The notes under the pieces are model-generated. The model searched no databases. It was given only the letters and a program-made list of their open reading frames with translations, and had not been told where the DNA came from. 64,000 nt of DNA from an uncultured Candidatus Rokubacteria bacterium. Its GTDB lineage: Bacteria; Methylomirabilota; Methylomirabilia; Rokubacteriales; CSP1-6. Numbering within the stretch: position 1 is the stretch's first letter; each line of letters begins with the position of its first letter. Made by a program: the position numbers and the translations under genes. The stretch is from assembly GCA_963771355.1 (NCBI GenBank), contig CAVYTA010000006.1:2048001-2112000 (forward strand). Reading direction: 5' to 3'. Shown here in pieces: positions 21,526 through 24,753 of this stretch.

Positions 21526-22880
21526 GCCCGGTGCTCCGCGCCGGGCCCGTCGCGCAGGCGCGCTACGAGGCCCTGCGCATCCTCGTGCGCGTGGAAACCG
21601 ACCGGGCCTTCGCCGACATCACCCTCGAGCACGCGCTCGACCGCGCGCAGCTGGAGGCGCGGGACGCGGCCCTCTGCACCGAGATCGTCTACGGGACACT
21701 CCGCTGGCAGCGGCACCTCGACTGGCGGCTCGCCGCCCATCTGCACCGCCCCATGGCGCGGCTCGATCCGTGGGTACGGGCCCTTGTGCGTCTCACCGCG
21801 TATCAGATCCTCTTCCTCGACCGCGTGCCCCGCTGGGCCGCGGTGGACGAGGCGGTGAGCCTGGCCAAGCTCAAGGCGCGCACGCCGGGCCCGGCGGAAT
21901 TCGTCAATGCCGTACTGCGGTCGCTGACCCGCGCGCCCGCGCCGCCGGCTTTCCCCGCCAATCCAGTCGAGGCGGCGGGGGTCCGGTGGTCGTTTCCAGA
22001 CTGGATCGCCGGGCGGTGGATAGCGCGATATGGCCGCGTCGAGGCGGAGGCGCTGATGGCGGCTCTCAACGAGCGGCCACCGCTCACCCTCCGCGCCAAC
22101 CGGCTCCGCATCACGCGCGAGGCGCTCGCGGCGCGGCTTCGTGAGGAGGACCTCGCCGACAGCCGGCCCACCGCGCTGGCCCCCGACGGGCTCGTGCTGG
22201 ACAAGGGAGCGGTGTCCCGACTGGCCGCGTTCACCGAGGGCTGGTGCACGGTACAGGACGAGGCCTCCATGCTGGTGGCCCTGCTCCTCGACCCGCAGCC
22301 GGGCGACGTGGTGGCGGACGCCTGCGCCGCGCCCGGCACCAAGACCACCCAGCTCGCCGAGCTCATGGGCAATCGCGGGCGCATCATCGCGCTCGACGCC
22401 TCGGCCGGGCGCCTCAAGCTGCTCGACCGCGCCGCGGCGCGTCTGGGTGTCACGATCGTGGAGAGCCATGCCGGCGGCGTCGCCGCGCTCGCGCCTCGCT
22501 GGAACGGGCGCTGTGACCGGGTGCTCGTGGACGCCCCCTGCTCCAACCTGGGCGTGCTTCGCCGGAATCCGGAGGTGAAGTGGCGGCGCACGGAGGAGGA
22601 CCTCCGCCGCCTGCAGCAGAAGCAGCGCACCATCCTGGCATCCGCCGCCGCGATGGCGAAGCCGGGCGGCGTGCTGGTCTACGCCACCTGCTCGCCCGAG
22701 CCCGAGGAAAACGAGGACGTGGTGATGCCGTTCCTCGCGGCGCATCCCGACTGGGCGATGGACCCGCCGGCCGAATTCCTGGTCCCGCCCGACGCCCACG
22801 GCATGGTCCGGCTCTTTCCGCACCGGCACGGCACCGACGCCTTCACCGCCGTGCGCCTGCGCCGACGGGGACGCGGATGA
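21522..22880 (+). CDS. rsmB: 16S rRNA m5C967 methyltransferase
   Basis: NusB-like N-terminus, QDEAS, DACAAPGTK, DAPCS, YATCS. Confidence 0.95.
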   Translation: MSPVLRAGPVAQARYEALRILVRVETDRAFADITLEHALDRAQLEARDAALCTEIVYGTLRWQRHLDWRLAAHLHRPMARLDPWVRALVRLTAYQILFLDRVPRWAAVDEAVSLAKLKARTPGPAEFVNAVLRSLTRAPAPPAFPANPVEAAGVRWSFPDWIAGRWIARYGRVEAEALMAALNERPPLTLRANRLRITREALAARLREEDLADSRPTALAPDGLVLDKGAVSRLAAFTEGWCTVQDEASMLVALLLDPQPGDVVADACAAPGTKTTQLAELMGNRGRIIALDASAGRLKLLDRAAARLGVTIVESHAGGVAALAPRWNGRCDRVLVDAPCSNLGVLRRNPEVKWRRTEEDLRRLQQKQRTILASAAAMAKPGGVLVYATCSPEPEENEDVVMPFLAAHPDWAMDPPAEFLVPPDAHGMVRLFPHRHGTDAFTAVRLRRRGRG

Positions 22881-24025
22881 GCGAGGCGTCGCGCGTGCGC
22901 CCGCGCTGGCTCGGTCCCCTGGGCTGGATCACCGGCGTCACCTCGGTGATCCTCGGCGCGGCCGGCGTCGGCGCCGTGCTCTGCCTCTGGTACCCGGCGC
23001 TGCTGACCACACCCGCCCTGCGTGACGTCTACGACATGCGGCTGATCCGCGGCCTGATCAAGGCTGGGCTCATCGCCGGCTTCGCGCTCGGCGCGGCCAG
23101 CCTGCTCCTGAAGCGCCGGAAGGCCCTCGGCCTCACCGGAGTTGGCCTCGCGGCGCTGGCCACCCTCATGGGCGGATCCACGGTCGAGGTGGCGACCCCG
23201 GTGCGGCCGTCGGACTATCTCGGGCTGGACTGGTTCCTCATCAATCTCCTCATCCTCGCCACGGTCTTCGTCCCCCTCGAGTCGGTGTTCGCGCGGCTGC
23301 CCGCGCAGCGCGTCTTCCGGCGCGGCTGGACCACCGACCTCGCGCACTTCGCGGTGAGCCATCTCCTGGTGCAGGCCGGCGTGCTGCTCACCCTCGCCCC
23401 CGCGGCCGTGTTCTTCCGCTGGGCGGTGAGCCCCGCGCTCCAGGGCGCAGTGGCCGCCCAGCCGATCGTGCTCCAGTTCGTGGAGATCCTCGCCATCGCC
23501 GATCTCACGCAATACGGGGTGCATCGGCTCTTCCACCGGGTGCCCTGGCTCTGGCGCTTCCATCAGATACATCACTCGAGCCGCGACATGGACTGGCTCG
23601 CCGCCTCGCGCCTGCATCTGGTGGACATCGCCGTCACCCGGGCGGTGGGCTTCGTGCCGGTGTACGTCCTGGGCTTCGCGTCGGGTCCGACCTACGCCTA
23701 CCTCGTCTTCGTCTCGTTCCAGGCCATCCTCATCCACGCCAACGTGTCCTTTGCCTTCGGACCGTTGCGCTGGCTACTCGCGACGCCCCAGTTCCATCAC
23801 TGGCATCACGCGGCGGAGTCGGAGGCGGTCGACAAGAACTTTGCGGTGCACCTGCCCGTGATCGACTGGGTGTTCGGCACATTCTTCCTGCCGGGCCGGC
23901 GCTGGCCCTCCCGCTACGGGCTCGACGGCGATCCCGTGCCCGAGGGCTACGGGCGCCAGCTGGTTTATCCGTTCCTCCGCGGGGGCGGGCCGTTCCTTCG
24001 CGGGGGCGGGCCGGCGGGGGACTAA
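22877..24025 (+). CDS. Sterol desaturase / fatty acid hydroxylase family membrane di-iron enzyme
   Basis: His boxes HRLFH, HQIHH, HAN, HHWHH; ATGA overlap with rsmB. Confidence 0.9.
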   Translation: MSEASRVRPRWLGPLGWITGVTSVILGAAGVGAVLCLWYPALLTTPALRDVYDMRLIRGLIKAGLIAGFALGAASLLLKRRKALGLTGVGLAALATLMGGSTVEVATPVRPSDYLGLDWFLINLLILATVFVPLESVFARLPAQRVFRRGWTTDLAHFAVSHLLVQAGVLLTLAPAAVFFRWAVSPALQGAVAAQPIVLQFVEILAIADLTQYGVHRLFHRVPWLWRFHQIHHSSRDMDWLAASRLHLVDIAVTRAVGFVPVYVLGFASGPTYAYLVFVSFQAILIHANVSFAFGPLRWLLATPQFHHWHHAAESEAVDKNFAVHLPVIDWVFGTFFLPGRRWPSRYGLDGDPVPEGYGRQLVYPFLRGGGPFLRGGGPAGD

Positions 24026-24753
24026 GGGCCGCGCCGGCGCGGCGCGGTGACCGACATCGGGAGCCCAAGGGCGGAGAGCGCACGCTCGGCAGCCGGGAAG
24101 AAGCCGACCCGGTCGAGGAAGGGATTCAGCCAGCCGGTGGCCACGCAATAAGCGTCCGCCTGCGTTCGATGATGCCGGGCATGATGCGCCGGACGGAGGA
24201 CCAGTCCGGCTCGCTGAAGCCGCCCCACCGCTCGCGGCGCCACCGGCAGATGCGCCCACTTGTGGAACTGATTGGTAACCACCGCCCCCACCGCGAAAGT
24301 CAGAAGCGCGGAATGCGCCACGACTGAGAGCGGCGCTGCCGTGGCCGGTGGCGCGAGGAGAGCGACGACGGCGAGCAGCGGCGCGATGGCGAGACAGCTA
24401 TTACCCGCGATCTCCGCCAGCCCGTGGTGCGTCATCGCAAGCGGATCGCGGTGGTGCTCGCGGAAGGGCTCGATGAGCATCCTCCCGACCAGCGGCGTGT
24501 CCTCCTCGAAGAAGGTGTCGCAGAACCAGTGAACGATGCCGGAAAAGAAGTCGGACGCGAGATAGCCGAGCGCCACCCCCATCGCAACCCACCCGGCCCG
24601 GGACGAGATCGTCTCCACGGCGGCGAGACGGACGGCGAGGACGAGCCAGAGCACGGATGCTGTCGCCAGGGCCGCCCACTCGACAAGGGCGAGCCAGTTG
24701 GGCCGCGGGCCCGTGACAGGCGCCGCGCCGGAATCGCCAGTGGTCTCGAGCAT
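24022..24753 (-). CDS. carF: CarF/TMEM189 (FAD4-related) lipid desaturase, putative plasmanylethanolamine desaturase
   Basis: SGIVHWFCDT, PFREHHRDP..THH, NQFHKWAH, HHARHH, YC..TGWLN. Confidence 0.85.
   Translation of the reverse strand: MLETTGDSGAAPVTGPRPNWLALVEWAALATASVLWLVLAVRLAAVETISSRAGWVAMGVALGYLASDFFSGIVHWFCDTFFEEDTPLVGRMLIEPFREHHRDPLAMTHHGLAEIAGNSCLAIAPLLAVVALLAPPATAAPLSVVAHSALLTFAVGAVVTNQFHKWAHLPVAPRAVGRLQRAGLVLRPAHHARHHRTQADAYCVATGWLNPFLDRVGFFPAAERALSALGLPMSVTAPRRRGP

Follow-up and report, generated by a model that had tools for sequence, protein, structure and literature searches.

A CarF-like membrane desaturase gene paired with a PF04116 gene in an uncultured Rokubacteria bacterium: a candidate lipid-oxidation cassette

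The PF10520 family of membrane desaturases has two known reactions, those of PEDS1 and of FAD4, and aerobic plasmalogen synthesis in bacteria has been described as concentrated in Myxococcota. A stretch of 64,000 nucleotides from an uncultured Candidatus Rokubacteria bacterium (GCA_963771355.1, contig CAVYTA010000006.1, positions 2,048,001 to 2,112,000; the window) contains a gene of this family (the desaturase) whose stop codon overlaps that of a gene of the sterol-desaturase/fatty-acid-hydroxylase family PF04116 (the partner). This locus raises the question of whether the two genes form an aerobic plasmalogen module, as was originally predicted from the letters alone, or act on another lipid. 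On sequence grounds the two genes are a real, intact and conserved pair, a putative lipid-oxidation cassette found across six phyla. An aerobic plasmalogen role for the pair is possible, but a reading in which both enzymes would act on a shared non-ether lipid is better supported.

According to passages of PMC9131029 and PMC8156234, CarF occurs in bacteria only among myxobacteria, Leptospira and part of the Alphaproteobacteria, and His at position 113 marks the homologues that complement. In the GTDB search reported in PMC13012113 the full pathway was found in 73 bacterial genomes, 61 of them Myxococcota, and a bacterial clade of 229 sequences is collapsed in a figure of that paper. Its Dataset S1 (2026) holds two Rokubacteriales PF10520 rows, one of which is the protein of our locus L043. 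The view that this lineage had no description holds in part, since these two rows exist and no paper was found on the gene pair; further supplements of PMC13012113 could place or discuss the clade.

The desaturase and its place in the PF10520 family

The desaturase scores 156.7 bits with the PF10520 profile (Pfam cut-off 26.4) and has the eight conserved His of the family. Its His residues 75, 100, 101, 110, 164, 168, 191, 194 and 195 align with H78, 103, 104, 113, 164, 168, 191, 194 and 195 of Myxococcus xanthus CarF, and its D79 and F97 with D82 and F100, which by spacing correspond to mouse D100 and F118, residues whose roles are described in passages of PMC9131029 and PMC8960569. All 11 residues known to matter (nine His, one Asp and one Phe) are kept. 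The CarF/TMEM189 His pattern of the original prediction is confirmed by this alignment, with no essential His missing, and its statement that the ninth His separates this type from plant FAD4 was correct: the H113 position holds Arg in Arabidopsis-type FAD4, Tyr in the Bradyrhizobium type and His in this desaturase, as the second His of THH in the motif FREHHRDPLAMTHH. The residues that mark PEDS1/CarF (the ninth His, H110, with D79 and F97) are therefore all present, and none of the FAD4 marks (Arg at the H113 position, a QGHH box, a place in the FAD4 clade) was found. The H131A variant described in PMC8960569 keeps 7% of the activity and the residue lies outside the iron site, so that H131 is not proven to be a substrate determinant.

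The CarF reference was taken from a Myxococcaceae genome, and a look-up named the sequence CARF_MYXXA; Leptospira homologues and two amoebozoan homologues served as further references. The FAD4-type and Bradyrhizobium-type references are metagenome-contig proteins assigned by eye to rows of Dataset S1, for which an exact look-up gave no name; the pattern search for these types gave 36 matches, from which four unrelated open reading frames (ORFs) were excluded. The FAD4 residue at the H113 position was read from a pairwise alignment; MAFFT misplaced FAD4 in that column. The AlphaFold model of the desaturase (predicted local distance difference test, pLDDT, 88.3) has four long helices, in agreement with the four-helix topology of CarF. 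No relative was found by sequence search of the PDB, and no Foldseek match reached E<=0.001, the best being to the Scs7p hydroxylase (E 0.27, template modelling (TM) score 0.41). The start codon may lie further inside the ORF, and cluster members of 215 residues exist.

In a mixture-model tree of 55 rows the desaturase falls in a 24-row clade (support 98/94) with all 12 paired rows. Outside this clade lie the PEDS1-side set (85/94), FAD4, the Bradyrhizobium type and another group of bacterial sequences. The window clade is supported at 94/88 in a 52-row tree and at 83/93 in a 29-row tree, in which the PEDS1-side sequences did not form a single clade. The long rows P0168, L165 and L166 were excluded from the 52-row tree and P0168 from the 55-row tree; the trees contain no animal TMEM189, and none was among the sequence-search matches. 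The Bradyrhizobium protein that does not complement was not seen inside the window clade in the 55-row tree. Approximately unbiased (AU) tests rejected a sister position of the desaturase to Myxococcus CarF (p=0.0001) and did not reject a grouping of the window clade with FAD4 (p=0.44) or with the Bradyrhizobium type (p=0.54). The NF045946 profile gives 571 bits to CarF, 232 to the Dictyostelium homologue, 219 to that of Leptospira, 156 to the desaturase, 103 to the Bradyrhizobium type and 81 to FAD4. The desaturase (155.8 bits) is thus below the equivalog cut-off of 500, a weak test that the Leptospira and Dictyostelium homologues miss too. The protein lies in a clade of its own, with whose deep position more than one arrangement agrees. 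The tree check proposed in the original prediction gives neither answer, since the protein is not FAD4 and is not shown to be CarF: it lies outside the FAD4 clade and is not the sister of Myxococcus CarF, and by score it is intermediate, nearer to CarF than to FAD4.

With Myxococcus CarF and animal TMEM189 (PEDS1), the desaturase shares the nine His, the second-shell Asp and Phe and the four long helices, and it is 46% identical to CarF over 169 residues. It differs from CarF in its separate clade, in its PF04116 partner, in a genome without ElbD, FARAT or AGPS match and in several residues, with F81-F82 in place of W84-G85, G111 in place of D114 and R102 in place of V105, and further differences from the PEDS1 side at CarF positions 118-119. 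The Leptospira homologue is likewise bacterial, below the NCBIfam cut-off and encoded in a host without FAR, and that of L. interrogans complemented a delta-carF mutant (as described in PMC9131029); that of L. weilii is 37% identical to the desaturase. Unlike the window's protein, the Leptospira homologues lie on the PEDS1 side of the tree, and 28 of 29 loci have no partner gene within 1.5 kb, the other showing one weak partial match. Plant FAD4, a delta3-trans desaturase of phosphatidylglycerol, shares the Pfam family and the eight His and works on an ester-linked chain, as we propose for this desaturase, but it is only 35% identical and has Arg at the H113 position, QGHH and QQFHAWAH boxes and a long branch of its own. 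The CarF-like protein of Bradyrhizobium diazoefficiens, which failed to complement delta-carF, shares the family and an acidic pair after the HWxxD box; its type differs in having Tyr for H113, Thr for F100, its own clade (100/99) and no nearby partner.

The pairing and the partner gene

Of the 251 genomes of the phylum, 18 gave a PF10520 match, and these belong without exception to the window's family (159 genomes); 16 of these carriers have a window-type desaturase and two (L002 and L003) one of the CarF-side type. The partner lies within 1.5 kb of the window-type gene in 13 of the 16 genomes (frameshifted in one) and about 3 kb downstream in another, while the remaining two contain a 46-residue partner remnant and no partner, respectively. 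A survey of named loci, comprising the best 80 of 280 confirmed loci, placed the partner next to 20/51 window-side, 0/23 CarF-side and 0/6 unplaced desaturases. Twelve of the 20 paired loci are Rokubacteria-type and overlap the family set; the other eight belong, by record title, to Acidobacteriota (three), Gemmatimonadota (two), Planctomycetota, Cyanobacteriota and Alphaproteobacteria (one each). The pairing is thus conserved in relatives, with a partner within about 3 kb in 14/16 family genomes and in eight loci from five other phyla. The convergent arrangement first noticed in the window is the rule in the window's genus, where the pair stands behind an rsmB-like gene; in the other genera the genes are in tandem with the desaturase first.

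The partner is present in 72/159 family genomes and the desaturase in 18/159. Judged by eye, the branching of the partner agrees broadly with that of the desaturase, and genomes with the partner alone are interspersed with the paired ones; together with the higher frequency of the partner, this suggests an old cassette from which the desaturase has often been lost. Both domains also occur in one chain, in the 682-residue protein P0168 with the order PF10520-PF04116-PF10520. Its desaturase domains lack the H113 equivalent, having Asn or nothing at that position, which is occupied by Tyr in two paired loci. A search for longer desaturase forms gave five proteins, with no fusion among them.

The CarF-side gene of L002 is near amoebozoan PEDS1 rows in the trees, and neither the L002 nor the L003 genome gave an ElbD or AGPS match. 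Two loci titled Nitrosocosmicus and Verrucomicrobiia (L021 and L022) have the same gene order as the window and desaturases 67-80% identical to the one described here, for which reason these titles look like mislabels. A different recurring gene set stands downstream of the PF10520 gene in 16/80 loci, mostly with Myxococcota and Binatia titles (L027, L042, L046, L048, L053, L057, L060, L068, L070, L076, L080, L084, L088, L091, L095 and L097), with FabH/FabF-like ORFs upstream in 6-8 of them (by eye), a second conserved context of this clade.

The partner ORF is intact, with all His boxes conserved (Table 1), and its start codon shares the letters ATGA with the end of the preceding gene, called rsmB-like from a reading of the translation. 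A hydrophobic N-terminal extension of about 150 residues has no Pfam match; residues 1-150 resemble an Atlas cluster of 864 unnamed bacterial proteins of 160 residues (score 0.94), so that the extension may exist elsewhere as a domain on its own or in fragmentary form. The PF04116 His boxes are shared with the ornithine-lipid hydroxylase OlsE and with alkylglycerol monooxygenase (AGMO). The kinship with AGMO suggested in the original prediction is supported at the level of the domain, which the AGMO-like protein P0334 also carries, but not beyond it: the partner gives no match at E<=0.1 to PF24858, the C-terminal domain of AGMO, whereas P0334, used as a control, does. It is also far under the OlsE profile cut-off (NF052566, 120.5 bits against 475), and no credible sequence relative was found in the PDB. 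Two PF13444 matches in the source genome look by eye like acyl-homoserine-lactone synthases and not like OlsB.

Table 1. Features of the paired locus in the window
Feature	Position	Strand	Basis
PF10520 (CarF/TMEM189/FAD4 family) membrane desaturase, 243 aa, 'HWFCDTFFEED' clade	24022..24753	-	profile, His mapping, tree
PF04116 sterol-desaturase/fatty-acid-hydroxylase family partner, 382 aa	22877..24025	+	PF04116 98 bits, His boxes
4-bp overlap of both stop codons (CTAA)	24022..24025	.	sequence
21-bp tandem duplication, one mismatch, lengthening the partner tail (PFLRGGG twice)	23969..24010	+	sequence

The 4-bp overlap of the stop codons was correctly seen from the outset. It follows the 21-bp duplication and the pair is in tandem in other genera, and it is therefore not a conserved feature. 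The source genome (5.5 Mb) is 99.8% complete. A plasmid search gave no match. No sigma-70 promoter-like site was found, and the single terminator-like site is no more than chance would give. Contigs from RNA libraries (rhizosphere and soil runs) are identical to both genes letter for letter, but flanks and intergenic DNA are covered as well, so they are not evidence of transcription. Two other PF04116 genes in the genome are broken (C5:869752-870577 and C6:2631200-2631508), one being frameshifted and one a remnant.

Ether-lipid supply and the substrate of the pair

The original prediction called for ether-lipid synthesis genes (elbD/agps-like) elsewhere in the genome, and the known aerobic genes were not found. 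Queries for ElbD, the FAR-acyltransferase (FARAT) and AGPS came from a CarF-bearing myxobacterial genome and were named by domain and by gene order against the figure legend of a review. The source genome gave no FARAT match, matches to ElbD through its AMP-binding part alone and 27-34% matches of AGPS to other FAD oxidases only, so the aerobic pathway (FAR/ElbD, GNPAT/FARAT, AGPS) is not recognised in it despite its completeness. The ElbD reductase domain and AGPS were each found in 0/18 Rokubacteria carriers, and the tables of PMC13012113 list for Rokubacteria no FAR, no GNPAT and one AGPS match. In 15 other genomes, ElbD reductase matches were found in five and AGPS in four. Among 22 paired genomes, 10 have none of ElbD-FAR, AGPS and PF09989, 11 have at least one and one has only a weak AGPS-like match; many of these genomes are incomplete, and four of the 10 are 91-100% complete.

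The reading that we prefer, tentatively and with a confidence that falls just short of probable, is that two diiron enzymes form a cassette and modify a shared non-ether lipid close to its head group. Both proteins are His-box membrane enzymes, and by analogy with their families each would use O2, a diiron centre and an outside electron donor. The partner would hydroxylate a membrane lipid, and the CarF-like protein would introduce a double bond into a chain attached by an ester or amide, not by an ether, close to the point of attachment. Action near the head group is suggested by the tested relatives of the desaturase, which work beside the glycerol linkage (PEDS1 at C1', FAD4 at C3); fatty acid 2-hydroxylase acts at C2. 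The gene distribution suggests a core reaction by the partner with an accessory one by the desaturase, and for most carriers a substrate other than an alkyl ether. A shared non-ether lipid is favoured because the partner is conserved, because H113 is lost in some paired or fused members and because no ether supply tracks the desaturase. In the alignment the H113 equivalent is kept in 237/260 window-side rows against 170/173 PEDS1-side rows.

Several observations weigh against this preference. The H113-equivalent His is present in the desaturase, and reviews tie this residue to delta-carF complementation; in passages of PMC9131029 and PMC13012113, complementation succeeded with homologues that have this His and failed with those that lack it. 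The surroundings of the metal site (D103, E114, G117, T160, N161) are PEDS1-like and not those of FAD4 or the Bradyrhizobium type. The AU test did not reject a union of the window clade with the PEDS1 set (p=0.37) or with the Myxococcus/amoebozoan subclade (p=0.25). The grouping of the 260 window-side rows has a FastTree support of only 0.125 and is enriched in neighbours of the query. The partner is absent from 31/51 window-side loci and mostly stands alone in the family, and the triple fusion is a single metagenomic record; a search with it gave no second example. Moreover, Leptospira PEDS1 is active although the genome shows no FAR (PMC9131029), so that missing supply genes do not exclude PEDS1 activity.

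The alternative that survives best, a serious one although we hold it to be less than probable, is that the desaturase is a true PEDS1, which would convert alkyl-ether phospholipids into plasmalogens, the ethers coming from a Ger/PlsA-like operon or being scavenged from soil organisms. It accounts for the intact signature with 11/11 key residues and for the higher identity to CarF than to FAD4; the Leptospira and Dictyostelium homologues are also under the NCBIfam cut-off, and Leptospira gives a precedent for activity without FAR. An ElbD-like reductase was found in three paired genomes from outside Rokubacteria, in one of them adjoined by an AGPS-like gene. The source genome itself has a candidate ether source, a Ger/PlsA-like gene set (C1:175502-180466) encoding PF09989 and PF01869 twice. 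PF09989 and PF01869 are domains common to Ger enzymes (PMC13159169). The three-gene PlsA/PlsR/Ger-like set (C1:175502-181353, L199), which includes a 520-residue ORF without Pfam match, is directly behind a PF03405 gene resembling ferritin-like acyl-ACP desaturases. A YhhN-family (lysoplasmalogenase-like) gene at C6:2637124-2637690, unlinked to the pair, could be counted in favour as well, but YhhN was not found in 3/3 other paired genomes tested. PF09989 does not track the desaturase: 10/16 carriers and 81/159 family genomes have it, and four carriers of 91-100% completeness gave no match. Furthermore, Ger was active in E. coli only without oxygen (PMC13159169), the domain order of the Ger/PlsA-like operon is split and its product is a prediction, and the partner is left unexplained. 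A more specific version, which we consider unlikely, would have a true PEDS1 fed by the anaerobic-type Ger/PlsA-like reductase. In this hybrid route of an uncultured soil lineage, ethers would be formed reductively and then turned into vinyl ethers with oxygen, and the adjacent or fused PF04116 enzyme would oxidise the ether lipid further.

The two enzymes could also act on different lipids and be merely co-regulated or co-transferred, the partner for example oxidising hopanoids, which seems quite unlikely to us. Most family genomes have the partner without the desaturase, databases call the partner a sterol desaturase or lathosterol oxidase, the orientation varies, and the window's pair, being convergent, cannot be a single transcript. 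Strong squalene-hopene cyclase matches exist at C5:618034-618987 and C4:166197-167141, and at least one was found in 5/5 paired genomes tested; the pair does not adjoin the cyclase genes in the source genome, however, and adjacency is kept in both orientations and six phyla, with a fusion in addition. Breakdown of scavenged ether lipids, with an AGMO-like partner, a vinyl ether made by the desaturase and its hydrolysis by YhhN, would fit the PF04116 domain of AGMO-like proteins (P0334), the lack of aerobic ether synthesis genes and the YhhN gene of the source genome, but is very improbable given that the partner has no AGMO C-terminal domain, that an AGMO-like protein is the weakest match in the search with the fusion, that YhhN was not found in the other paired genomes tested and that the recurring neighbours (unannotated, viewed by eye) include no recognisable transporter or aldehyde dehydrogenase.

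Of the aerobic plasmalogen module, what stands is the family, the essential residues, the kept H113, a score nearer to CarF and the conserved pairing; the absence of CarF sisterhood, the aerobic ether genes not found and the loss of H113 in some paired or fused members speak against it.

Meaning for the PF10520 family

This clade keeps the PEDS1 signature without the supply pathway, and therefore offers a direct test of H113 as a mark of ether specificity. A protein with another native substrate could well complement all the same; fungal homologues did so, yet no plasmalogens were present in the two Trichoderma strains that were analysed (as reported in PMC13012113). If the desaturase has PEDS1 activity, aerobic plasmalogen capacity would extend to soil phyla and a new source of ethers would be implied. 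If it does not, a third PF10520 reaction would be implied, and the pair would offer a way into the role of a 'sterol desaturase' gene that is widespread in bacteria.

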